Virus record (IMG/VR): IMGVR_UViG_3300033121_000168
Coordinates: 1 to 64,000 of that record
Length of the DNA: 64,000 bases
Reading direction: 5' to 3' (one strand)
Source of the DNA: a virus
Lineage: Duplodnaviria; Heunggongvirae; Uroviricota; Caudoviricetes
Numbering within the stretch: position 1 is the stretch's first letter; every line of letters starts with the position of its first letter. The position numbers and the translations under genes are program-made. Below the pieces are notes generated by a model. It was not told the origin of the DNA. It did no database searches and was given only the letters and a program-made list of their open reading frames with translations. This document shows positions 4,948 to 17,852 of the stretch, piece after piece.

Positions 4948-5141
4948 AGAACTCAAAAGTAAAATTTCAAGCTTGAAAAGTTTTTTAACAAAAGCCCAGA
5001 TCGAAAATGCCCTATCCTCAAAACGTAAATAAGCCAGGAAATTGTTGATAACGCATTACGAATAACGGAGAGCGTTAACCGGATAAAATTAACCAGTAAT
5101 AAATAACCATTTAACGATAAATATTAAATAAGGGGAAATAA

Positions 5142-5366
5142 ATGCACTGTCGTATCACTAAACCAAAAGGGTTACAGACTAACCCGCAAAAGCGCAACTC
5201 AATTAATAAATGCTTTGAGATTAATAAGATATATTCACATCTGAACATTAATCATTATATATTAAATGGGAGTCCTTTTATTTGGACTGAATCCGAAATT
5301 GAACTTGTTACACCAGACCAATTTAACGTTTCACATTTAACATATGAATTTACAACTAGAGACTAA
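5142..5366 (+). CDS. hypothetical protein
   Basis: 74-aa ORF with GGGG RBS, inside an otherwise non-coding repeat-rich region. Confidence 0.3.
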   Translation: MHCRITKPKGLQTNPQKRNSINKCFEINKIYSHLNINHYILNGSPFIWTESEIELVTPDQFNVSHLTYEFTTRD

Positions 5367-5836
5367 GCAAGCTCTGTGCCTACATATGTAGGGTTTCTAC
5401 TCAGTTTTGATCAATCTAGGGTTTATCCTAACTTAGACTGAATTGTCACTAAATGACGAATCCTCAGGAATGCCCTTAAAACGCTCTACAATCGATTTTC
5501 ACCCCTTGCCTATAGTCTGGTCTCAAAAAATATAGTTCTCGCAACATGGAGCTATCCTCAGGTTCTAAACATGGGTTTACATAGACAAAAATCCAGACTT
5601 ATCCACATGTTGTAAAATAATAACAAAGTATTTTACTAGGGTTTGTGTTTTGTGTTACGCGTGCATGCGTGTCTAGATCTAGGGACGGGTTTTCAATAGC
5701 GTTACAAATTATTACAGTTTGTTGTAACAAAACAACGGAATTCTGTGCATAATGGGAACCAATGCAGCAATGCAGACGACACAGGAAAAACATGATACTA
5801 CGTCAAGCCCTCACACAAACCAAAGGAAGTGATTAA

Positions 5837-6049
5837 ATGGAATACCCTAAAGAATACGACATTATCAAAGTAAATGGTGTGGTTCCCGACTGGGTTGATG
5901 ATTTTGACAAAGCCCATTTCATCTCGCCCGATGACTACTGGGTAATTGACTTGACTGATGAAAACGTCAGTGTTCAATTTTTCAAGCTGATCGAAATCAA
6001 CCAGCCCCCGTTACTTTCAACCAACGCTAAACGGACCACATCATGCTGA
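5837..6049 (+). CDS. hypothetical protein (first gene of the higher-GC island)
   Basis: 70 aa, AAGGAAG RBS; local GC clearly above the window average. Confidence 0.45.
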   Translation: MEYPKEYDIIKVNGVVPDWVDDFDKAHFISPDDYWVIDLTDENVSVQFFKLIEINQPPLLSTNAKRTTSC

Positions 6050-6345
6050 CAATTGAACAATTGACTTCTGTCAAATCTCAAATGACCCTCAAAGGGGCTG
6101 CAATCACTGCTAAAATTGTAGCTGATGCGGTACGGCTCAAAATGCGGGCTGACATTGAGAACCCGGCGGGAACCTGCTCACTGTCCGGTTTTCTGCCCCT
6201 CGCCATAAATCTACATTTTAATGAACTAGCAGACAGCCTAGACAATAATTGTCCGCACTACCCCGACGACGTGGACACAATCGACACATTGCGCGATCAG
6301 GTGGCACAGAATATGCGTGAACTGGGTTTTGATTTTGAGGCATAA
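6043..6345 (+). CDS. hypothetical protein
   Basis: 100 aa, overlapping start. Confidence 0.45.
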   Translation: MLTIEQLTSVKSQMTLKGAAITAKIVADAVRLKMRADIENPAGTCSLSGFLPLAINLHFNELADSLDNNCPHYPDDVDTIDTLRDQVAQNMRELGFDFEA

Positions 6346-6346
6346 T

Positions 6347-6538
6347 ATGAAAAACGAACATGATGCAAACTTGGGCCTCACCCCTCAAACTGTCCCAAGC
6401 TGGATGCACCCCTCGAAACACGTTTACAAGCCCCTCAAGGCTCAAACAAAGGGCCGGGAATACTTGGGGGCTATCGTGATCGGTTTGATTATTGCAGCCC
6501 CTTTTATCGTTCAAACAATTACCGATTACACGAAGTAA
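6347..6538 (+). CDS. small membrane protein
   Basis: ATG at 6347 (internal to the listed 6317-6538 ORF), C-terminal TM segment GAIVIGLIIAAPFIV. Confidence 0.4.
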   Translation: MKNEHDANLGLTPQTVPSWMHPSKHVYKPLKAQTKGREYLGAIVIGLIIAAPFIVQTITDYTK

Positions 6539-6546
6539 GGATACAA

Positions 6547-6753
6547 ATGCCCAAAATCAATATGATGCAAAACGAAGCCGATTTTATGGCATCGGTTAAT
6601 CAAGCCTTGCAAAAGGTTCACAACAAGGCTTTGCAGCATCGCCGCAGTTTCGAGGAATTGTCACGCCCAGATTATTGGAAGGAACAACAAGCCAGAAAGA
6701 ATAACCCGCGTGTTAAATCATATGATGCGCTTGCAGATTATGTCCTCGTCTAA
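6547..6753 (+). CDS. hypothetical protein
   Basis: 68 aa, AAGGAT RBS. Confidence 0.4.
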   Translation: MPKINMMQNEADFMASVNQALQKVHNKALQHRRSFEELSRPDYWKEQQARKNNPRVKSYDALADYVLV

Positions 6754-6770
6754 TTGACCATATCGGAAAG

Positions 6771-7130
6771 GTGACAAAAGAAACCTATTCTGTCCGCATC
6801 AAATACTTGCAAGATAAAATCAAATTCTTTCAAGATCAACTGAACCAACAAAAGGAAACCAAAACAGTGCAAGAAGACAAAAAGACAAAACGTATCCCCA
6901 TTGGTCGAAAGTATCAAAAAACAATCGATACTAGTGGGTGGTCTAACGAACAATTCAATAGTTTACATCGTGGACAATGGGTCAAAAACTTTGGTGCAAC
7001 TGGGCAATTCTTGGGCATTACCGCAAGGGGCACAGTCACGGTCAACTACAAGCAAACCGAGGATAAGCGCAAGCAATATGCCGCGAATCAGCCCTTGCGC
7101 AAGTTCGTCATTTTACACGGGGGGAAGTAA
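6771..7130 (+). CDS. hypothetical basic protein (GTG start)
   Basis: 119 aa, Lys/Gln-rich. Confidence 0.4.
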   Translation: MTKETYSVRIKYLQDKIKFFQDQLNQQKETKTVQEDKKTKRIPIGRKYQKTIDTSGWSNEQFNSLHRGQWVKNFGATGQFLGITARGTVTVNYKQTEDKRKQYAANQPLRKFVILHGGK

Positions 7131-7135
7131 ATAAA

Positions 7136-7306
7136 TGAACCAACAGATCTACAGGGTTATCATGTTCTCAGTAACATGCCCTAGCGAAAAGTCTAATATG
7201 GGCGTTTATAAGACATACCATGATGCAGAAATGGCGATTCTAAAATTTAAACAGGATTACTCAGATAGCATGCTGTTTGAGATTGAAGAAGATTATTTCG
7301 GATAAT
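7136..7306 (+). CDS. hypothetical small protein (56 aa)
   Basis: ATG after TAAATAA, MNQQIYRVIMFSV...; below the ORF-track cutoff. Confidence 0.3.
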
Positions 7307-7382
7307 AAGGCTTTAACCCTTAGCCCCTGATAATATCGGGGGTTTTGGTTAGATTCTTTTGACCCTTAATTCAAGGTTATTT

Positions 7383-7835
7383 ATGTCACATTTTACAGAA
7401 TCCGAACTTCGTGCTATTACCAAAGCGAAAAATATCCTCTATCGTGCGATGAAATCAGGGCCCGTTTTCAATTCTCCTCAAGTCGTAAAAGATTATTTAC
7501 AATTGCAGATTGGGCACCTGGAGCGCGAGGTTTTCGGGGTGTTGTATCTTGATGCACAAAATAGACTAATTGATTTTGTGATTGAGTTTCACGGCACCCT
7601 CACGCAAACAAGCGTCTACCCGCGTGAGATTGTTAAACGGGCGATTGCTCTAAACGCAGCTAGCACAATCCTTACACACAATCACCCATCGGGTTTATTG
7701 GAGCCATCAAGGGCTGACGAACTATTGACTCAAACCCTAAAATCTAGCCTATCCCTTGTTGATGTTAGGGTTTTGGATCACATGATTGTCGGCGTTTCGG
7801 GGGCAGTATCTTTTGCTGAAAAGGGGTTAATTTAA
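7383..7835 (+). CDS. radC: RadC-like JAB/MPN domain protein
   Basis: Translation carries the RadC signature: ...[40 protein letters not shown]... (HNHPSG...PS..D JAB motif). Confidence 0.8.
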
Positions 7836-7836
7836 T

Positions 7837-8040
7837 ATGCAAGTCAAAGAGTACGAAACCGATTGTTTTGGTGTAACAGCTAGAATATCAACAATCGGCA
7901 ATTCTAAATATGTGGACATCTGCAGTCGCATCCATGTCAAAACAGAACATAGGCTCCCACATAGTTACGCCATAACATGGTCAGACTATCAGATTCTAAG
8001 GGATTCAGATTTTCTGAAATATCTGAGCCGCTACAGGTAA
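7837..8040 (+). CDS. hypothetical protein
   Basis: 67 aa, start 2 nt after the RadC stop. Confidence 0.45.
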   Translation: MQVKEYETDCFGVTARISTIGNSKYVDICSRIHVKTEHRLPHSYAITWSDYQILRDSDFLKYLSRYR

Positions 8041-8177
8041 ACCAAAATGCAATGTCGAATCAAAACCATCGAAACAGTGCTAGACCTAGTGAAAACAGGC
8101 ATCTAGCACCTACCCCTAACCCTATCCATTTCAATTGATCCTAGGCCCTTCCAGGGGCCTTACCGGAGGTTTAACCA

Positions 8178-8927
8178 ATGCCCGGATTTATCATTTATCA
8201 AGGCCCTAGCCTTATCGACGGAAAACCGATTGTTGTCATTTATTTGGCAGGATCGGATAACGTCAAAACTGGTAACATGGCTCAAACCTATATTCTCAGG
8301 GCTGATATTAACCCCCTCTCGGCGTCACGACATGGTGACGATTACTCAATATGTGGAGACTGCAAGCATAGGGGCACCCCTAACCCAGCAAAATCTAAGG
8401 GTTGGGCCGATAATAGGGCCTGCTATGTTAACCTGATACATGGCCCCAATCAGGTTTATAAGGCATTCAAGGCAGGCAAGTACCCCTCAGCACAAAGTCT
8501 AACTATTCTAGGGTGTGACCATATTATCCGGATAGGTTCATATGGTGATCCCCTTGCAGTGCCGCATTATGTATGGGCAAGCCTCACCCTTAAGGCTAAA
8601 ACATGGACAGGCTACACCCACCAATCAGAAACTAACCCCGATAATCGCACAATCAATTTGTGCATGATCTCAGTCGATAATAAGGACGAATATCATCGAG
8701 CACAGTCTAAGGGTTTTAGAACCTTCCGCATTATCCCTTATCAGGAATATCAGGATTTCGGACATAATAGCCTTATGCCAAACGAGATACTATGCCCGGC
8801 TAGTAAAGAGGCTAATATTGAAAAGAGTATCACATGCTCAGATTGTAGTTTGTGCAAGGGTCAAACTATTAAGGCGAAGTCGATAGCTATTGTGGCTCAC
8901 GGCACTGGACGCAAGCATATTACCTAA
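8178..8927 (+). CDS. cysteine-rich hypothetical protein
   Basis: 249 aa, GGAGG RBS; CGDCKHRG and CSDCSLCKG clusters suggest a metal-binding protein; last gene of the island. Confidence 0.5.
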   Translation: MPGFIIYQGPSLIDGKPIVVIYLAGSDNVKTGNMAQTYILRADINPLSASRHGDDYSICGDCKHRGTPNPAKSKGWADNRACYVNLIHGPNQVYKAFKAGKYPSAQSLTILGCDHIIRIGSYGDPLAVPHYVWASLTLKAKTWTGYTHQSETNPDNRTINLCMISVDNKDEYHRAQSKGFRTFRIIPYQEYQDFGHNSLMPNEILCPASKEANIEKSITCSDCSLCKGQTIKAKSIAIVAHGTGRKHIT

Positions 8928-9140
8928 GGCTGAAGCCATTATGTATATTGACTAATAAGGAGAATAATATATTCAATATTAAATATCTTCAATATAGAAA
9001 GAGATTCAAGGCGTATAGAAAGTTAATTAACCTATACTCCCTGCTGTTAGTCCATTGTCTGGTAATGGGTTTGATGCTCATGGGGTGGATATGGATCGCA
9101 GGGTGTGTGTTTAACGCTTCGCGTTAGGTGCAAAATGTTC

Positions 9141-9156
9141 GTGGTGTTGACACCAC
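9141..9156. promoter_or_regulatory. operator-like palindrome GTGGTGT-TG-ACACCAC (copy 1 of a 23-bp repeat)
   Basis: Perfect 7-bp inverted repeat with 2-nt spacer, embedded in TTCGTGGTGTTGACACCACAA which recurs at 9989. Confidence 0.5.
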
Positions 9157-9325
9157 AATGAAGCCTCCAGGTTAACAGCCTGGGGGCTTTTGTCTTTATG
9201 GATTGTTCTATTGTTATGGTTAAATTTGAAGGGTTTAATGCTTTGTGTTATGGGTTTGTGGGCAATGTTGATTGTTAATTGTTAGCTCAATCGCTGGAGG
9301 TGCTATGGTACTATAGTAAAATGTG

Positions 9326-9341
9326 TTAAATGCACATTTAA
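9326..9341. promoter_or_regulatory. palindrome TTAAATG-CA-CATTTAA
   Basis: Perfect 7-bp inverted repeat with 2-nt spacer in a 1.4-kb non-coding region. Confidence 0.4.
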
Positions 9342-9624
9342 CGCTTAACGTTATCCGTTATGGCTGCTATAAAATGTTTGCTTCGCAAATAAATAAACGA
9401 ACCAGAGGCATTAGACTGTAAGCTGGTGTGTTTGCAAGGTTTATAATTCGTGTGATATTTTAAAATTGTTGGAGTATATAGAAGGGGGTGGGGATTGTCC
9501 TATCAAGCAACTAAGCCATACTGCTATTAAAATCACTAAACCCTTATAAATCAACAACTTATCTAACTTAATTAAAACTGAAACCATTATAAAACTTTAA
9601 TTAAAATAGAACACAAAATCTTAC

Positions 9625-9650
9625 GGTGAAAGTCACCTTTATTCTTTTAA
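9625..9650 (+). terminator. rho-independent terminator
   Basis: GGTGAAAGTCACC hairpin followed by TTTATTCTTTT. Confidence 0.55.
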
Positions 9651-9988
9651 TATGACTAAAAATTTTTTTTATAAAAGGTAAATTTGTTAAAATTTAGAGA
9701 TCTCTTAAAACGGTCTATAATCGATTTAAAGGTCTTACCCTAGCACTGGTATTACTTTAGACTGAAAACCTCTTAGGAGTCGTTTAAAGAGGAAATAGAA
9801 CTATGTTAAGAACAGATTTCTTATGTTTAGTTATCAATAGATGATACAATTAAGTTTTGGATAGATAAACAATATGTTGTGCTGGCACAACGAGCTTATG
9901 AAGTATAGGGTGAAACCCTAACAGGAACACAAAAATAATGAATCAGATCATAAAGAAGTCTTCATAACTTGTTTCAAAACTAAGATTC

Positions 9989-10004
9989 GTGGTGTTGACA
10001 CCAC
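9989..10004. promoter_or_regulatory. operator-like palindrome GTGGTGT-TG-ACACCAC (copy 2)
   Basis: Identical 23-bp context to copy 1; overlaps a TTGACA hexamer. Confidence 0.5.
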
Positions 10005-10354
10005 AAGGAAGTTTTGACGACAATTCCTTGACTTTACACAAAAAATATGCTAAAATTAAAAATGTATGTTGATTCATTAACATTCATGTGCAGTTTGCAC
10101 ATAAAATTAATGTTTTAAAATATTTATATTTAATAAATAATTTATTTTCTTATTTATAAGATTTATTGTTTATAAGGAATTATTAGTTTTGATTTGATTT
10201 ATTTAAATTCTTTATAACTGTAATGTTTATTCCTTCGGAATTAAGTAATAAATATTTCTAGATATGTATATTTTGATAAGCTATTCAGCCTAAGGTCTTG
10301 ACTTCATCAAATTAATTTGATAAGATTAAGTTGTGTTTAATTTATGGAGGTGCT

Positions 10355-10615
10355 ATGGAGTACATGGAATTGAATGATAATAAGGTAAAGATTTCAGCTA
10401 TGGGAATTGCGGACTTTTTAGTTGGAGTTACTGAGAAGGTGAAAGAGGGGTATGAGTTGAATTATTTGAATAATGACATGTATCCTGTTGCTTATGGTGG
10501 ATATTTTGAAGTAGTTGTTCAAAAGGTTCAGGCTCAAAAGGTTCAGGCTGAAGAGGTTAAGGAAGATAAGGTTGAGGTTGAGGGTAAGAGGGGACGTAAG
10601 GCTAAGGTTGATTAA
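10355..10615 (+). CDS. hypothetical protein with Lys/Glu/Val-rich repetitive C-terminus
   Basis: ATG at 10355 with GGAGG RBS 4 nt upstream (the listed 10331 start is probably too early); imperfect 15-nt tandem DNA repeats (AAGGTTCAGGCTCAA-like) encode KVQAQKVQAEEVKEDKVEVEG. Confidence 0.45.
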   Translation: MEYMELNDNKVKISAMGIADFLVGVTEKVKEGYELNYLNNDMYPVAYGGYFEVVVQKVQAQKVQAEEVKEDKVEVEGKRGRKAKVD

Positions 10616-10678
10616 CTAGATTAGATATACTATAGGTTACAGTGAGTGGTGATACGACGATAAAGGAGGTTACTTAAT

Positions 10679-11437
10679 ATGCGACAATCTAAACAGGTAC
10701 AGCGTACCAAGGGTTCTTCACGCGATAGTTCGAAGATTAAACCTAAGTTTCAATCGCAACGGGAAGAGGCTGTGAAGGCAAATCCTTTAAGACCAATGAA
10801 CGACAAACAGGCTGAGTATATTAAGTTAATTGAGAACTTTCCTGTTATTGTTGCTACTGGGTTCGCAGGAACATCTAAGACGTACATTCCTACTGTTATG
10901 GCTGCGGACTCTTTTAAAGTGGGTCGGGTAAATAAAATCATAATCACACGTCCAGCAATCAGTTCTAGTCAATCTGTTGGGTTTACTGTCGGCAGTTTTC
11001 AGCAAAAAATGACTATGTGGCTTGGTTCTGTCATACCTATCCTGAAAGAACGACTTGGTTCTGCAATGCTGGAGATTGCTTTGGAGCAAGGCGACATTGA
11101 GTTTGTTCCTTTAGAAGTTCTGAAGGGTATGAGTATAAATAACGCCTTCATGATTATTGAGGAATCTTCAGATCTGACAAAGGAAGAGGTTATTAAGATT
11201 GTTACTCGTATGGGTAAAAATTCTACATTAATTCTTGCTGGGGATGTTCGACAGTCTGAATTGAAAGGTGATTCTGGCCTTGTTTGGTTGACTGGTTTTA
11301 TTGAGCGTCATAAGATGCAAGACATTTTTGGTTGGATTGATTTTGATAGTACAGATGATATTGTGCGATCCGATGCTGTAAAACGCTTTATCATAAATCT
11401 TGTCAGGGACGAGAAGAAAGCATTCAATAAATCTTGA
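10679..11437 (+). CDS. phoH: PhoH-like ATPase
   Basis: Walker A GFAGTSKTY, PhoH-like downstream motifs (LILAGDVRQSE), GGAGG RBS. Confidence 0.8.
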   Translation: MRQSKQVQRTKGSSRDSSKIKPKFQSQREEAVKANPLRPMNDKQAEYIKLIENFPVIVATGFAGTSKTYIPTVMAADSFKVGRVNKIIITRPAISSSQSVGFTVGSFQQKMTMWLGSVIPILKERLGSAMLEIALEQGDIEFVPLEVLKGMSINNAFMIIEESSDLTKEEVIKIVTRMGKNSTLILAGDVRQSELKGDSGLVWLTGFIERHKMQDIFGWIDFDSTDDIVRSDAVKRFIINLVRDEKKAFNKS

Positions 11438-11490
11438 ATTCTTGTTCATTGGTGTTATAATTAAATACCCAATAACACAAAGGAGTAAAC

Positions 11491-12114
11491 ATGAAACAAA
11501 CTATAGGTTCTTCCTTAAAACTTAATGAATTTGATGAAGATGACTTAGGTTCAAGTAAAGGTGAACTTCCTTTCTGTGTTAATTCTACAGTGTCAAATGA
11601 GATTATCATCCCCATTGATGAAGTTGTGCAGGAGGCGTCTTATTACAGAAACGTGGCACACGCAGTTTCTAGTGCAACCGGGGATGATGTAGTCAGGTAC
11701 AGAATTAACTCGCCTGGAGGCCGTTTAGATGGCTTGATAGCCCTTTTGCATGCAACTGTAGGTACTCAGGCAACTGTAGTAGCTGAGATTGTTGGAGAGT
11801 GTCATAGTGCAGCTAGTATTTTAGCTTTACATTGTGATGAGATTTTTGTAGGGCCTTATGCCAGTATGTTGTGTCATTCTGTTAGATATGGATATGCTGG
11901 CAAATGTGCAGATGTAGAGGCTTATGTTAAACACACAACTAAAACTACAGAAAAGCTTATGCGAGAAACTTATACAGGATTCCTTTCAGAAGAAGAAATT
12001 GATGACTTACTTAAGGGTAGGGAACTATATTTAGATTCTGCTGAAATTATTGAGAGGTTAAAACTTAGGGAAGAACTTTTCAATCAATTAGAGGAAGATA
12101 ATTCATTAGATTGA
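11491..12114 (+). CDS. ClpP-family (S14) serine peptidase-like protein
   Basis: INSPGG motif, Ser candidate in GECHSAAS, His in MLCHSV, matching the ClpP layout. Confidence 0.6.
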   Translation: MKQTIGSSLKLNEFDEDDLGSSKGELPFCVNSTVSNEIIIPIDEVVQEASYYRNVAHAVSSATGDDVVRYRINSPGGRLDGLIALLHATVGTQATVVAEIVGECHSAASILALHCDEIFVGPYASMLCHSVRYGYAGKCADVEAYVKHTTKTTEKLMRETYTGFLSEEEIDDLLKGRELYLDSAEIIERLKLREELFNQLEEDNSLD

Positions 12115-15138: not shown

Positions 15139-15170
15139 ACCCTGTGTATATTACACGGGGTTTTTGCGTT
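15139..15170 (+). terminator. rho-independent terminator closing the tRNA operon
   Basis: 10-bp stem ACCCTGTGTA/TACACGGGGT with 3-nt loop followed by TTTTTGCGTTT. Confidence 0.8.
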
Positions 15171-15181
15171 TGGAGAATATA

Positions 15182-15544
15182 ATGCCTTTTGTTCCTGGTA
15201 AATCTGGTAATCCGAATGGAAGACCAACTAAAGATCGAATTTTGGAAAAAGCAGCAGGCGATTCTAAATCAAATAGAAAGCTTAGGGAAAAAGCTTTACT
15301 TGAGTTAGCTCGTAAGGTTAAACCACATACTGGAAAAGCAATTGTTACTGCCATGAACATCATGGAAAATGATAAATCTTCTGAAGCAGGAAGACTTAAA
15401 GCAGCAGCCTTACTTATTCAGACGTATAAGTCTTTAATCAATGAATTATATGATTATAGATATGATGAAGAGATTGCTGAAGAAATGCAAGAGACTGACA
15501 AAGCTCCTGTATTCTCTTTAAAGATGGTTAATAAGGATGAATAA
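15182..15544 (+). CDS. putative terminase small subunit (GNPNGRP-motif family)
   Basis: ATG at 15182 with GGAG RBS; N-terminal MPFVPGKSGNPNGRPTKD matches the G-x-SGNP-x-GRP motif of one terminase small-subunit family; sits directly upstream of the large subunit. Confidence 0.5.
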   Translation: MPFVPGKSGNPNGRPTKDRILEKAAGDSKSNRKLREKALLELARKVKPHTGKAIVTAMNIMENDKSSEAGRLKAAALLIQTYKSLINELYDYRYDEEIAEEMQETDKAPVFSLKMVNKDE

Positions 15545-15559
15545 ACATAAGGAGGTTGA

Positions 15560-17108
15560 ATGAGTTCTAATACTGTATTTGCACCAGCGTCAAAAGCACA
15601 AGAGCAATTCTTGAATAGTGATGCAGATATTACTTTCTATGGTGGTAAAGTTGTGCCTCCATTCAAAACCTATTTAATTCGGTGAAACCCTAACGTAAAA
15701 TCGAGGGCAATACCGAGCCAAGCAGGGGGTATTTTTAATATCCCCGGGCGTGTGTAGAGACTATGGGAAACCAGTAAGGTTCAAGCGAATCTGAAACAGT
15801 AGGATGCTTTATAGCATAAGATATAGTCCGACACCCAAGGAAACTTGGGAGTACTCTAGCGAAGTACATAACTTTCTGGCAGCGGGCAGTGGAAAGAGCC
15901 ATTGCTTACTTATGTCGTTCCTAAAGTTTTGTCATCATCCACGTACTCGTGGTGTGATATTTAGGCGAACAACAAAGCAGATCACAAACCCTGGTGGTTT
16001 ATTTGACTCTGCAGTTAATTTATACAAATTAGTAGATCCTAAACTAAGAGTAAGAATGAGAGAGTTAGAACTTGTTTTTAGTTCTGGAGCTGTTCTCAAA
16101 TTTGCTTACCTTGACAATGCTTCTGATAAATATAACTTCCAAGGTGCGGAACTTACTTTCATTGGTTTTGATGAGATTCAACAATTAAGTGAAGACAATG
16201 TAACTTATTTGTTTTCTCGTTTGCGTTCAACCTCAGTTGATTATAAGAAGCAGATTGTAGCTACAGGTAATCCTGACTACGATAGTTTCATTCGACATTG
16301 GGTTGAATTTGCACTTGATGAGCGTGGCATTCCAATTAGAAAAGATGTTTACCCTACTCGATATATGTGTCAAGCGATGGGTGGCTCTATTGAGTGGGCA
16401 GATACTAGAGAAGAACTAGAGAAGAAATATGGTACTGGGGATGACTCTGGTATTCTATCCTTTACATTCATTCCAGGGACTATTTATGATAATCCACCTT
16501 TGATGAAGGCTGATCCGACTTACGTTAGTAAGTTAAAGAAACTTCCTCGCGTTGAGATGGAACGTCTTCTATTGGGGTCTTGGTATGCAAGACAAGAGGC
16601 TGCAGGACTATGGAAGAGAGAGTGGATTACTCTTGTAGATCATCCTAATCCTAAAGCAACAAAAAGGATTAGAGCCTGGGATTTTGCGTTTAGTCTACCC
16701 TCCGAACAATATCCAAATCCTGACTGGACTCGTGGTGTCCTTATGTCAAAGGATAAGAACAGTGTTTACACAGTTGAAAATGTCGTTTCTATGCGAGACA
16801 GAGTACACGAAGTTGAGAAGTTAGTATTTGAGACTGCAATTCGGGATGGACAAGAGGTTATTATTTCTATACCTATTGACCCTGCAGCAGCAGCAGGAGC
16901 ATATGCTAGAGACTTCCAACGGAGGCTTTCTGAATATGGTTTCAATGTGAAACTATCGAAGCCTGTAAAGTCCAAGGTAACTAGATTTGCTCCATTTTCG
17001 AGTGTAACTCAGGCTGGATTTGTTAATGTAGTAAAGGGTGATTGGAATACTCCTTTCTTTGATGAATTGGAGATATTCGATGGAGATCCTAAGAAAAAAG
17101 ACGATTAA
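15560..17108 (+). CDS. terminase large subunit, split gene: exon 1 15560-15646 (29 aa) + exon 2 15879-17108, joined by group I intron splicing
   Basis: Exon 1 (GGAGG RBS) encodes MSSNTVFAPASKAQEQFLNSDADITFYGG; exon 2 continues AAGSGKSHCLL... (Walker A), FDEIQ Walker B and a C-terminal nuclease domain. The Walker A motif YGG|AAGSGKS is regenerated only when 15647-15878 is removed; exon 2 is in frame 0 with the long ORF 15804-17108. Confidence 0.8.
15647..15878 (+). ncRNA. group I self-splicing intron (232 nt, no ORF) in the terminase large subunit gene
   Basis: 5' exon ends in U (..ATGGTGGT); internal guide sequence GCCTCCAT at 15655-15662 pairs 7/8 with the exon end; P7 strands AGAGACTATGG / AAGATATAGTCC (canonical S element); P9 hairpin CCCAAG-GAAA-CTTGGG; terminal G at 15878 precedes GCAGCGGGC of exon 2. 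Confidence 0.7.
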
Positions 17109-17314
17109 ATTGGGTCGTCTATAAACTCATTGAATTCGGTGGACACCTACTTGGAATCAAGTAGACAATACCGAGCGAAGCTGGTGTAATACCAGAACGT
17201 GTAACGACTAGCCGAAAGGCGTAGGGGCAAGTGCTCCGAAGCGGTGAGAAACCTAATAACTTAGGTTTAAGATATAGTCTCATCTGCATGGTGACATGCA
17301 GCATTTTAATATAG
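17106..17314 (+). ncRNA. second group I intron-like element inserted exactly after the last sense codon of the terminase large subunit (3' boundary uncertain)
   Basis: Exon end AGACGAT (17099-17105, last nt U) pairs perfectly with GTCGTCT at 17114-17120 (P1 with terminal U-G). Shares AATTCGGTG, CAATACCGAGCGAAGC, ACGACTAG (P7 5') and AAGATATAGTCT (P7 3') with the intron at 15647. P9-like hairpin CTGCATG-GTGA-CATGCAG. The terminase TAA stop is the first 3 nt of the element. Confidence 0.5.
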
Positions 17315-17324
17315 GAGAATTTCT

Positions 17325-17852
17325 ATGATTTATAATTCAAACTCTACAGGCCCTTTTAAAATTCTGCAAAGGAATGGTGATGCTTGTTTAATTCAGTTTA
17401 TAGACACCGGCACCACCAAAACTGCTTGTATTTCTAATATATTAGCTGGTAAAGTAAAAGACCAATATTTCCCTACTGTGTATGGTAAGGGGTATTATGG
17501 GGATTACGACAAGACCACGACTTATTACAAGCAGGCTAAACAGCTTTGGCAAAATATGCTAAAAAGATGTTATTGCGAAAAAGACTTAAAAGGTTACTAT
17601 GGTAAAGCAACAGTATCACAAAGATGGCTGAACTTTAGCAATTTCCTAGAGGATTTACCTAGCCTTGTAAACTTTAAGCAGTGGCTTGCTGGACAACAAA
17701 AAACAGGCGGGAAATATAATCTGGATAAAGATTTAAAGGTAAAAGGTAATACCTGTTACTGTAAAGAAGCCTGTATGTTCGTAACTGAGTTTGAAAATAA
17801 ATCAGAGGGCGCTAAAAATGGCAAACCTTATACTAAAATGGGCAAGAGTTAA
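17325..17852 (+). CDS. hypothetical protein next to the second intron-like element; possible intron-associated endonuclease/DNA-binding protein
   Basis: 175 aa with its own GGAG RBS; W-x2-M-x2-RC-Y motif (LWQNMLKRCY) and Tyr/Lys-rich regions reminiscent of DNA-binding modules in homing endonucleases; the position mirrors intron-encoded ORFs. Confidence 0.4.
   Translation: MIYNSNSTGPFKILQRNGDACLIQFIDTGTTKTACISNILAGKVKDQYFPTVYGKGYYGDYDKTTTYYKQAKQLWQNMLKRCYCEKDLKGYYGKATVSQRWLNFSNFLEDLPSLVNFKQWLAGQQKTGGKYNLDKDLKVKGNTCYCKEACMFVTEFENKSEGAKNGKPYTKMGKS

Follow-up and report, generated by a model that had tools for sequence, protein, structure and literature searches.

An apparently composite junction in a lytic myophage, with replaceable palindromes and a 75-nt element found in at least 32 phage lineages

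At oriF and oriG of phage T4 and at the primary origin of T7, replication is transcription activated or starts from an R-loop, and a promoter is followed by an A/T-rich non-coding stretch. PeSL cassettes of T4-type phages are said, in work of Arbiol et al. from 2010, to be intergenic units of an early promoter plus a stem-loop. Related Pseudomonas phages express abundant short untranslated intergenic transcripts that are conserved within the genus, and these phages include PAK_P3, with its 5'UTR-derived sRNA1 and sRNA2 (PMC4933390; bioRxiv 10.1101/2023.10.13.562163). In phage T5, the injection stop region is large and untranslated, with repeats, palindromes, and eight DnaA boxes (bioRxiv 10.1101/866236).

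We analyzed a 1.4-kb region (8930-10330) within a 64,000-nt stretch of viral DNA, hereafter called the window. The genome is that of a lytic myophage, kin of Limnohabitans phage DC31 and of PaP1-like Pseudomonas phages. A first-pass annotation had described the region as non-coding DNA with duplicated operator-like palindromes and had proposed a regulatory hub, a replication origin, or a non-coding RNA locus. Judged by its sequence and by related lineages (L numbers below), the region appears to be a composite junction between two transcription units and no single element. It is mostly an ordinary finding, with one lead, a 75-nt element, that deserves follow-up.

Anatomy of the region

The features are listed in Table 1. 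Our preferred reading is that an upstream early-type operon would have as its last parts a small membrane-protein gene and a series of three stem-loops ending in a strong intrinsic terminator. The promoter-like element at 9454-9527 and the motif at 9707-9727 would each start a short untranslated transcript, and two near-consensus sigma-70-type promoters would start a small-protein/PhoH/ClpP-like operon.

Table 1. Features of the region, in window coordinates
Feature	Position	Strand	Remarks
Small membrane-protein gene	8969-9127	+	52 codons; stop TAG 9125-9127; RBS AAGGAG 8957-8962
Hairpin 1 of the 3' end	9106-9132	+	Contains TAACGC-TTC-GCGTTA; overlaps stop codon
Palindrome copy 1	9138-9163	+	Stem-loop GTGGTG-TTGA-CACCAC 9141-9156; between stop codon and terminator
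Intrinsic terminator	9160-9200	+	14-pair stem with 7 G-C pairs, then T run
GT-rich spacer	9191-9292	+	Poorly conserved; many insertions/deletions
Strong RBS GCTGGAGGTGCTAT and 3-codon mini-ORF	9293-9316	+	RBS conserved; mini-ORF ATG GTA CTA TAG 9305-9316
Palindrome TTAAATG-CA-CATTTAA	9326-9341	+	Different hairpin at same place in relatives
Heptad array TTAACGC TTAACGT TATCCGT TATGG	9338-9362	+	About 100 nt upstream of conserved element
Conserved element	9432-9527	+	75-nt part 9454-9527; -35-like TTGCAA 9432-9437; nhmmer and alignment A4
Invariant GATATTTT	9454-9461	+	Extended -10-like TGnTATTTT or GATATT
Hypervariable G-rich tract	about 9478-9499	+	
Element core CTATCAAGCAACTAAGCCATACTGC	9500-9524	+	
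A-rich, G-poor tail, then weak terminator-like hairpin GGTGAAAGTCACC	9528-9650	+	Hairpin 9625-9637 plus T run
Phage-specific promoter-like motif CTTAAAACGGTCTATAATCGATTT	9704-9727	+	TATAAT 9716-9721
Untranslated stretch, about 280 nt	9728-10011	+	Transcription from 9707 motif predicted; copy 2 at end
Hairpin CCTCTT/AAGAGG	9769-9774/9787-9792	+	Covers RBS of 13-codon mini-ORF 9803-9844
Palindrome P3 GTTGTGC-TG-GCACAAC	9876-9891	+	
Hairpin TAGGGT-GAA-ACCCTA	9906-9920	+	
Palindrome copy 2	9986-10011	+	Stem-loop 9989-10004; 24 nt upstream of next promoter's -35 hexamer
Near-consensus sigma-70-type promoter	10028-10056	+	TTGACT, 17 nt, TG-n-TAAAAT; 10/12 matches plus TG
Leader with palindrome ATGTGCA-GTT-TGCACAT	10062-10131	+	Palindrome 10086-10102; 90-98% invariant columns
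Very AT-rich spacer	10132-10297	+	GC 0.165-0.20; 59-nt insertion/deletion among close relatives
Second sigma-70-type promoter	10298-10326	+	TTGACT, 17 nt, TG-n-TAAGAT; 100% conserved in relatives
First gene of small-protein/PhoH/ClpP-like block	10345-10615	+	RBS GGAGGTG; ATG 10355

Seven distinct perfect palindromes (arms of at least 7 bp, spacers of 2 to 4 nt) lie in 8930-10330. Dinucleotide shuffles predicted 0.68 +/- 0.81 and reached seven in 0 of 500 cases; the other 62.6 kb of the window held 21 by the same criteria. A GenBank phage DNA search gave no match in near or distant modes, nor did exact-pattern scans of viral contigs with the repeated 21-mer and with a conserved 20-mer of the 9780 region. 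Viral-contig scans anchored on the PhoH protein found nothing, and those anchored on DUF7227 found two distant loci only. An exact look-up of the DUF7227-family protein of the window returned only an identical 3.7-kb contig.

The first-pass annotation had reported no open reading frame of 60 or more amino acids. This was literally correct, because the longest has 59 (8948-9127), but the frame at 8969-9127 behaves as a real small gene. It is open and conserved in L004, L005, and L006. Synonymous/non-synonymous codon changes relative to the window number 6/4 in L005, 9/4 in L006, and 8/12 in L004, and variable sites fall 11/6/16 at codon positions 1/2/3. At 9 nt after the RBS, where the window has TTC, a TTG start is present in L004, L076, and L077. 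Distant relatives also have a single-pass membrane mini-ORF and a terminator after the DUF7227-family gene. Therefore, the truly untranslated part runs from about 9128 to 10354.

The 3' end of this gene carries the described palindrome TAACGC-TTC-GCGTTA (9108-9122) within hairpin 1, whose predicted 12-pair stem is retained in L004. Directly 3' of copy 1 of the duplicated palindrome is a terminator stem (9160-9190) that had been missed earlier and is much stronger than the 9625 hairpin. It is retained in L004, L006, L076, and L077 with G-U wobble changes, which fit the + strand only. A G+C-rich stem followed by a U tract, the mark of an intrinsic terminator, was found at 9160-9200 and, in weak form, at 9625-9650. 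The latter is the terminator that had been called before, and its GGTGAAAGTCACC hairpin is invariant in seven close relatives.

The GT-rich + strand noted by the first-pass annotation was evident in the skews over 9000-9400 (GC skew +0.23 to +0.38, AT skew -0.17 to -0.31), as was the AT-rich DNA that follows (GC 0.23 at 9500-9699 and 0.165-0.20 at 10000-10299). The GT-rich spacer has 25-32% invariant columns (alignment A1) and short repeats (ATTGTT and TTATGG, four times each). Beyond it, a duplicated RBS and start, TGGAGGTGCTATGG, was found as described, with the 14 nt at 9295-9308 identical to the gene start region at 10345-10358, although the first copy had been placed at 9292, about 4 nt off. 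The RBS motif of 9293 is retained in L004, L005, and L077; the frame that follows varies in both its sequence and its length (L005 and L076, 13 codons; L077, 20). L004 has no ATG there, and in L076 the motif is altered to GTTGGATGTGCTAT. The palindrome at 9326 is present as claimed; its place is taken by ATGTGCA-GAA-TGCACAT in L077 and by AATGTG...CACATT in L006. Likewise, TTTAACGCTT, reported as a TTAACG(CTT) pair, occurs at 9110 and 9337. The three-heptad pattern of the adjacent array recurs in L077 (ATAACGC ATAACGT TAAACGA) and L079 (CTAACGC ATAACGC TAGACGT).

On the downstream side, the TATAAT that had been placed at about 9717 belongs to a phage-specific motif. The window has three copies of AAAACGNTCTANAATCGATTT (5478+, 9707+, and 53710-) against 0.03 expected, and L061 has it too. 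Looser versions of the 21-nt motif lie 150-250 nt downstream of the 75-nt element in L079, L024, L025, L048, and DC31. The 10028 promoter is invariant in relatives, and an 18-codon frame begins at ATG 10062, approximately at the predicted transcription start (placed by spacing only). The 10298 promoter is a 33-nt paralogue of the 10027/10028 promoter (repeat family D2). Among relatives, the PhoH-ClpP block occurs in either orientation relative to the DUF7227-family gene, which is consistent with a composite origin of the region.

In total, the stretch has two intrinsic terminators, one strong and one weak, together with four promoter-like sites: two are near-consensus sigma-70-type with an extended -10, and one is of the phage-specific 21-nt class. 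A regulatory hub is an apt description in that plain sense, but its other part, the palindrome pair as operators, is unsupported.

The 75-nt element and origin-like features

The 75-nt element is the sole deeply conserved piece of the stretch, and it is unclassified. It was found in at least 32 phage lineages (32 distinct versions), including cultured phage DC31, in a large clade of freshwater and marine myophages. There was a single nhmmer match per genome, and a pattern scan of viral contigs added 11 loci. It always lies downstream of the DUF7227-family gene, at 200-680 nt on the same strand. When seven other blocks of the region served as nhmmer queries, there were no matches outside the close clade. 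Over the 32 lineages, G content is 49% in the G tract, 11% at +75 to +200, and 20% in whole loci.

We found no sign of a conserved RNA fold. RNAalifold predicted no pairs for the element on 20 lineages, and its folding energy was about that of shuffles (mean z -0.3 to -0.5). An Rfam scan at gathering score in 12 other lineages gave no match overlapping it, and a permissive scan of 8800-10450, which bears on the earlier non-coding RNA proposal, gave no match with E <1. Coding was also rejected. One frame is open through the core in 20/20 lineages, yet 6/20 are without a start codon, and in DC31, L065, and L025 the frame stops right after the core while conservation continues beyond. A minus-strand frame (9441-9587) is broken by insertions/deletions in relatives. 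GATATTTT is not a general promoter word of the genome, as it was found 7 times with 7 expected. Contig ends were of no use as evidence for physical genome termini near the element, since the loci end at non-homologous places. The lone stand-out among these ends is a break inside the G tract that is common to L077 and L078.

These properties suggest that the element is either a small-RNA promoter/leader or an origin core. Both of the corresponding first-pass proposals, an origin or a non-coding RNA locus, are possible; the evidence for them is this element, which had not been singled out. Tentatively, and with more doubt than confidence, we propose that GATATTTT, the G tract, the ATCAAGCACC..CCAAnCTGC core, and the A-rich, G-poor tail may define a new widespread class, an unstructured small RNA or a transcription-primed origin core, with the surrounding palindromes as accessory hairpins. 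An unstructured small RNA could be, for example, a sponge or seed RNA. The Pseudomonas phage sRNAs, from related lytic myophages, are a precedent for the two short transcripts predicted here. Sequence kinship to sRNA1 and sRNA2 of PAK_P3 was rejected, as the published sequences of these RNAs contain neither GATATTTT nor the core motif.

A reading at the DNA level is that the region is a replication origin, binds DnaA, or pauses injection in the manner of the T5 injection stop signal. The 75-nt element would form the core, the upstream repeats would bind protein, the AT-rich stretches would open, and hairpins would be extruded from the palindromes when the DNA is single-stranded or supercoiled. 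We consider this unlikely, although several observations fit it. The element is non-coding, has no conserved RNA fold, and occurs once per genome in at least 32 lineages. Promoter, G-rich tract, and A/T-rich DNA come together; the T4 and T7 origins likewise have a promoter followed by A/T-rich non-coding DNA, and a G-rich transcript start here could favor an RNA-DNA hybrid. However, a hypervariable G tract is odd for an origin core, and GC skew tracks gene orientation, with no switch at the region. Lineage-specific tandem repeats lie 100-470 nt upstream of the element in L073 (11 bp x 10.5), L032 (13 bp x 8.2), L059 (14 bp x 4.4), L023, and DC31, but tandem repeats also occur in other intergenic regions of the same phages. 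Strong arrays were found in L073, L032, L059, and L023, whereas the window has only its three-heptad array, a pattern conserved in three lineages.

The T5 region offers a parallel, as another large untranslated region of a virulent phage with dense direct and inverted repeats and palindromes, and in L030 a 100-nt interval (-318 to -220) contains four perfect DnaA boxes (TTATCCACA). However, such a cluster was found in that lineage only, no DnaA boxes were found near the element in the window, and T5 is not a relative of this phage. Perfect palindromes and loop inversions are what results from template switching at hairpins in DNA, and the palindromes here, with their inverted loops, would fit that process. 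The adjacent DUF7227-family protein is not a likely initiator. It has no PDB sequence match and no initiator-like features, and its confident model (pLDDT 92) predicts an enzyme-like alpha/beta fold with conserved cysteines. Foldseek with this model gave no match below E 0.28; the weak top matches were enolase-superfamily, viperin, radical-SAM, and other barrel enzymes.

The duplicated palindrome

The first-pass annotation had described a 23-bp element that occurs twice. It does occur twice, but the string given, TTCGTGGTGTTGACACCACAA, has 21 nt, with exact matches at 9138-9158 and 9986-10006. We found no further match in the 64 kb at up to 3 mismatches (expected, 0). The repeat extends to 26 nt, of which 25/26 are identical, and each copy contains the palindrome GTGGTGT-TG-ACACCAC, as claimed. 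The sequence next to the repeat on its 3' side is AATGAAG for copy 1 and AAGGAAG for copy 2; as there is no U tract in either case, the repeat itself is not a terminator.

The two copies differ in conservation. Copy 2 is present in 7/7 close relatives, with a TG center in five and CA in L005 and L006. Copy 1 is missing from 3/5 close relatives, in which another palindrome occupies the same spot (ATGACG-TTAG/TTAA-CGTCAT in L004, L006, and L076). Compared with copy 1, three pairs are changed on both sides and none is broken. Outgroup L077 has ATCACG-GATGA-CGTGAT there, and in all relatives compared the stem-loop at this spot lies between the stop codon and the conserved terminator. MAFFT aligns the 3' arm of L077 to the 5' arm of the others, so the L077 hairpin is built from a shifted partner. 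Copies 1 and 2 have matching flanks (TTC..AA-GAAG), to which those of the alternative version are unrelated. The duplication is a patch common to the window and L005 only. A tandem duplication was rejected because extended homology between the two repeat neighborhoods was within the shuffle range of alignment score.

Other hairpins of the ~280-nt stretch, which has 78-98% invariant columns among four relatives, were also exchanged. The 9906 hairpin is replaced by the unrelated GTCAAGT-AAA-ACTTGAC in six relatives. P3 has a counterpart at equal relative position in L079 and L048 (GTAACGC-TG/TT-GCGTTAC), so that GT-TGT-GC/GC-ACA-AC of the window clade stands against GT-AAC-GC/GC-GTT-AC, three inner pairs being changed on both sides.

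These data are consistent with our preferred reading, a composite junction whose stem-loops are selected for pairing and whose copy 1 is a patch of copy 2, to which we give about an even chance. The 26-nt palindrome would be a stem-loop under selection for pairing, not for sequence. Copy 2 would be the resident version, at the end of the ~280-nt untranslated stretch. By parsimony, we infer that copy 1 is a recent patch copy of copy 2 that took the place of an older, different stem-loop just ahead of the terminator; recombination presumably spread this patch, which is otherwise found only in L005. RNA is the most likely level at which the stem-loops act, close to or at the 3' ends of transcripts, where they might affect stability, processing, or pausing. 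A C-to-T change in the 9769/9787 stem of L004 gives a G-U wobble on the + strand only. However, the palindrome pairs are Watson-Crick in 35/35 cases and the centers flip from TG to CA, which suits DNA-level symmetry (a dimer or cruciform) at least as well as RNA. The MFE z-score of 9728-10030 against shuffles was -1.8 on the + strand and -3.3 on the - strand, and the outer stem that is predicted to enclose copy 2 of the window is absent from L004 and L006. The covariation comes from few independent lineages, and part of it is patch replacement, not stepwise compensation.

The locus resembles the T4-type PeSL cassettes: in each case the phage is a lytic myophage, near-identical short stem-loops stand beside sigma-70-type early promoters in its intergenic DNA, and the copies move by recombination from site to site and from phage to related phage. 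Here, a near-consensus promoter follows copy 2 at 24 nt, and the patch is mosaically common to L005. However, there are two copies, not dozens; copy 1 is beside a terminator, not a promoter; and no gene shuffling bounded by the copies was seen.

It is improbable, more so than a DNA-level origin, that both copies and P3 are operators of a dimeric DNA-binding protein that controls early transcription. Each palindrome has perfect 7-bp arms, all Watson-Crick, around a 2-bp center, the three sites share the pattern GTnnnG(Y)-TG-(R)CnnnAC, and center flips would be neutral for a symmetric dimer. However, the inner triplets covary with pairing kept, and uncontacted operator positions would not need pairing. 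Copy 2 has its center about 66 bp ahead of the point where a strong promoter is predicted to start transcription, but no promoter is near copy 1, which a terminator follows at a distance of 3 nt. Copy 1 is also unconserved. Sister phages keep copy 2 and have another palindrome at site 1, so no regulator would be shared by both sites there. The first-pass proposal of an operator pair overlapping TTGACA fails on the same replacement and on the center flip, by which TTGACA shifts to the other strand in L005 and L006. In addition, there is no third copy within 64 kb, and a Pfam scan of ten flanking proteins found no recognizable DNA-binding domain. The sole classical operator position is held by a separate palindrome, ATCAAAT-TA-ATTTGAT (10306-10321), which fills the spacer between -35 and -10 of the 10298 promoter.

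Very improbably, the two stem-loops could be loading sites for a phage RNA-binding antiterminator, like lambda nutL/nutR, one per transcription unit and each upstream of a terminator: the hairpins are identical in two successive same-strand units, copy 1 is directly upstream of a strong terminator, and CGCTCTA of the promoter motif loosely resembles boxA (CGCTCTTA), but the duplication is limited to the window and L005, the loops are of 4 nt (UUGA or UCAA) with no purine-rich pentaloop, copy 1 is merely 3 nt from the terminator stem, the Pfam scan of ten flanking proteins identified no N-like protein, and the weak boxA likeness is inside a promoter-like motif, with no boxA seen on inspection within 20 nt upstream of either copy.

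Implications for related phages

Sister genomes should be checked before perfect palindromes that are duplicated in the intergenic DNA of a phage are called operators. Here, the palindromes would be interchangeable stem-loops and the duplication a local copy event. A by-product is a gene-level map of a 1.4-kb "empty" region, and the 21-nt promoter-like motif is usable for annotating the clade. In more than 30 lineages, the unclassified element is found at a constant genomic position, 3' of the DUF7227-family gene. Because DC31 is in culture, the choice between an origin and a small RNA is directly testable.

Genome setting and palindrome census

The window is part of the genome of a lytic myophage, and it contains 17 tRNA genes and a large terminase gene with two group I introns. 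The terminase is apparently split into three ORFs (15164-15544, 15804-17108, and 17325-17852; whole gene, 15164-17852), and the introns that separate them (15637-15850 and 17050-17301) pass the Rfam gathering scores for group I. The split is similar in the relatives' loci L004 and L007, and the gene is uninterrupted in L005 and L014. The portal protein shares 63% identity with its counterpart in Limnohabitans phage DC31 (placed under Pakpunavirus in GenBank) and 43 to 45% with portal proteins from the PaP1, KIL, and Otagovirus groups of Pseudomonas phages.

The flagged region is 8930-10330. No GenBank phage matched at the DNA level. Graded relatives were obtained by a protein search with PhoH, and their contigs were then fetched. 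The relatives compared comprised a close clade (L004 to L013; PhoH 99% identical, intergenic DNA 83 to 87% identical) and a more distant set (L014 to L022, 39 metagenome loci, 11 viral contigs, and phage DC31). Intermediate lineages (L076 to L079) were found via the DUF7227-family protein. The close clade retains the large gap, at 1434 to 1485 nt. The flanking genes and other features are collected in the table. We also noted that G+C content is 0.40 to 0.43 in 5000-9000 versus about 0.34 to 0.36 in adjacent stretches and that GC skew there is slightly negative despite + strand genes; this stretch may represent a module with another origin. Within the small gene to the right, an exact 15-nt tandem duplication (TCAAAAGGTTCAGGC twice, 10519-10548) gives a repeated QKVQA peptide.

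The first-pass annotation had reported a duplicated palindromic repeat, and this is real and unique. The 21-mer typed there occurs exactly twice in 64 kb, with no further copies at up to three mismatches (0 expected), and identity spans 26 nt with one mismatch (9138-9163 versus 9986-10011). The other repeats it listed were found in the region at slightly shifted coordinates, and composition computed along the region bore out its description. There are seven distinct perfect palindromes (arms of at least 7 bp, spacer of 2 to 4 nt), whereas dinucleotide shuffles predict 0.68 ± 0.81 and reached seven in 0 of 500. Their density is about 15 times that in the rest of the window. The observation is confirmed.

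Features of the region and its surroundings
Feature	Position	Strand	Description
DUF7227-family gene	8178-8927	+	249 aa; left neighbor of the region
Element, part 1	within 9454-9527	+	Invariant GATATTTT, usually preceded by T; reads as extended -10 (TGnTATTTT) or GATATT
Element, part 2		+	ARAAT-YGTA
Element, part 3		+	About 20 variable nt
Element, part 4		+	G-rich tract, mean 49% G
Element, part 5		+	Core (C)TATCAAGCACC-A---CCAAnCTGC
Element, part 6		+	About 125 nt, A-rich and G-poor (11% G versus 20% for the loci)
Promoter, near consensus, predicted	10028-10056	+	TTGACT-17-TGcTAAAAT, extended -10
Promoter, near consensus, predicted	10298-10326	+	TTGACT-17-TGaTAAGAT, extended -10
Small-protein gene	ATG at 10355	+	First of three-gene block right of the region
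PhoH-like gene	10679-11437	+	Second gene of block
ClpP-like gene	11491-12114	+	Third gene of block

A conserved element and origin-like features

An nhmmer search with the whole region found a single block outside the close clade, the 75-nt element at 9454-9527. There are at least 32 distinct versions, one per genome (counting DC31, the viral contigs, L076, and L079). The element shares its strand with the DUF7227-family gene and lies 200 to 680 nt downstream of it, and the PhoH-ClpP block follows in either orientation. One frame is open through it in 20 of 20 lineages tested. A coding function was rejected because a start codon is absent in 6 of the 20 and some lineages have a stop directly after the core, past which nucleotide conservation continues. 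We also rejected a stable structured RNA, since RNAalifold predicted no conserved pairs across 20 lineages and folding was unremarkable (mean z of -0.3 to -0.5). Variability is greatest in the G tract, also when only close relatives are compared. Independent ENA and JGI assemblies of one lineage (L077, 7219-7260, and L078, 5418-5459) both end inside it, and a Logan contig (L008) begins directly past it, which suggests either hypervariability at the population level or a problem in sequencing this tract.

Sequences upstream of the element suggest an origin-like or other protein-bound DNA element. Favoring this are tandem repeats that differ from lineage to lineage (L073, 11 bp x 10.5; L032, 13 bp x 8.2; L059, 14 bp x 4.4; and others), a three-heptad TAACG array common to the window, L077, and L079, and, in the marine metagenome relative L030, four perfect DnaA boxes within 100 nt (57-155, or -318 to -220 relative to the element; three TTATCCACA and one TGTGGATAA). 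The pattern resembles in kind the injection stop region of T5 (bioRxiv 10.1101/866236). However, tandem repeats are also present in other intergenic regions of these phages, the DnaA boxes are clustered in one lineage only, GC skew tracks gene orientation, and the neighboring DUF7227-family protein, judged from its predicted structure, looks like an enzyme. That protein (DUF7227/phrog_2554) has a confident AlphaFold model (pLDDT 91.9) and seven invariant cysteines, including C220-x2-C223-x2-C226. Its sequence matched nothing in the PDB, and Foldseek gave no significant hit (best E, 0.28); the weak top Foldseek matches included enolase-superfamily, viperin, radical-SAM, and other barrel enzymes. 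It occurs widely among phages of Mycobacterium, Klebsiella, Gordonia, and roseobacters. The origin and small-RNA readings, which the first-pass annotation had offered for the whole region, may still apply to the 75-nt element, and to it only. No Rfam family matched anywhere in the region; outside it, L018 has an int-alpA match (6520-6589, - strand; 37.4 bits versus a gathering score of 35.8). Long tandem arrays were seen in other intergenic regions of L066 (18 bp x 31, about 6.4 kb upstream of the element), L069 (11 bp x 7), L014, L070, and L075.

Proposed exchangeable hairpins and the duplicated palindrome

At its left end the region comprises a gene and a 3' end with three hairpins. Frame 8969-9127 lies 3' of an AAGGAG site and is open in four relatives, with 11/6/16 variable sites by codon position. 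Synonymous/nonsynonymous codon differences from the window are 6/4 in L005, 9/4 in L006, and 8/12 in L004. The product has a basic N terminus and then a single hydrophobic helix. This small membrane-protein gene starts with TTG in L004, L076, and L077; at 8972-8974, the window and L006 have TTC and L005 has TCG. Because the frame is intact despite the altered TTG codon and the changes are mostly synonymous, a noncanonical start (ATA at 8969 or ATT at 8978) or a recent loss of translation is suggested. Distant relatives also have a small one-helix ORF and then a terminator 3' of the DUF7227-family gene. Three stem-loops follow the stop codon: 9106-9132, copy 1 of the repeat (9141-9156), and an intrinsic terminator (9160-9190; a 14-pair stem and then a T run), which is the strongest signal beside copy 1 and was missed in the first pass.

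The copy 1 position reads GTGGTG-TTGA-CACCAC in the window and L005 and ATGACG-TTAG/TTAA-CGTCAT in L004, L006, and L076. Both bases differ at three of the six pairs, and every pair is preserved. The outgroup L077 has a different hairpin (ATCACG-GATGA-CGTGAT), made partly from a segment homologous to the L004-type 5' arm. Flanks differ between the two hairpin types, and those of the window and L005 match the flanks of copy 2, which is unchanged in 7 of 7 close relatives. By parsimony, copy 2 would be the resident and copy 1 a patch of 26 to 40 nt that overwrote an earlier hairpin. Downstream of the patch L005 resembles L004, so the patch would have moved by recombination. The copy 1 spot appears to require a hairpin, not this sequence, and the duplication appears to be young.

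A second palindrome, P3 (GTTGTGC-TG-GCACAAC, 9876-9891), has the same 7-2-7 design and is invariant in the close clade except for a CA center in L006 and L076. Its counterparts, GTAACGC-TG-GCGTTAC in L079 and GTAACGC-TT-GCGTTAC in L048, are at the same relative position, 360 to 490 nt 3' of the conserved element. The outer GT..GC is retained, and both bases of each of the three inner pairs differ. Such kept complementarity is expected of a stem, not of uncontacted operator positions. The hairpin at 9906-9920 is swapped for an unrelated hairpin in six relatives.

The proposal that the duplicated palindrome is an operator is not supported, because copy 1 is replaced in relatives and P3 pairing is kept through two-sided changes. 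The idea that it overlaps a TTGACA promoter hexamer is opposed by L005 and L006, where the copy 2 center is CA instead of TG and TTGACA is on the opposite strand.

G-U wobbles (in the terminator and in the 9769/9787 stem of L004) are compatible with the + strand only. However, the seven perfect palindromes have Watson-Crick pairs only, which counts against an RNA-only view, and loop inversion is a signature of template switching at DNA hairpins. Therefore, the hairpins probably form in DNA too. The best-supported reading is that the palindromes are interchangeable stem-loops, the duplicated one being a recent patch copy.

Predicted promoters and the fused gaps

The two predicted promoters are 33-nt paralogues and are invariant in relatives. 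The spacer of the second is filled by a perfect palindrome (ATCAAAT-TA-ATTTGAT, 10306-10321) that overlaps the extended -10 and does not vary among close relatives. No other palindrome of the region occupies a classical operator position, and this one is a stronger candidate operator than the flagged repeat, although this DNA is very AT-rich.

The TATAAT of the first-pass annotation belongs to a phage-specific, promoter-like 21-nt motif, AAAACGNTCTANAATCGATTT, with three exact copies in the window (5478+, 9707+, and 53710-; 0.03 expected) and another in L061. Looser forms lie 150 to 250 nt 3' of the conserved element in several lineages. One copy precedes a small membrane-protein gene on the - strand, and another (5478-5498) is inside a second untranslated gap (5367-5836; about 470 nt). 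Downstream in that gap, the leader CTTGCCTATAGTCTGG resembles CTTACCCTAGCACTGG at 9735, and the gap may encode a paralogous short transcript. We infer all transcription here from motifs. Stretch 9728-10011 is 78 to 98% invariant among close relatives and contains, in order, a stem over the ribosome-binding site of a 13-codon mini-ORF, P3, the 9906 hairpin, and copy 2. Its predicted folding is only modestly more stable than that of shuffled sequences (z of -1.8 for the + strand and -3.3 for the - strand).

The orientation of the small-protein/PhoH/ClpP block (10345-12114), taken relative to the DUF7227-family gene and terminase, varies among lineages. It is + in the window clade, L030, L040, L048, and L061 and - (inverted) in most others; the window was compared with L014, L016, L017, L018, and DC31 (L062, 15068-16848). 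Inversion places the conserved element in a convergent gap and gives the block's promoters a divergent gap of their own. The block of the window clade is co-oriented with its neighbors, so the two gaps are fused into one, making the region long. Copy 2 is near the seam, 24 nt before the block's first promoter. The region is best explained as a composite promoter/terminator junction.
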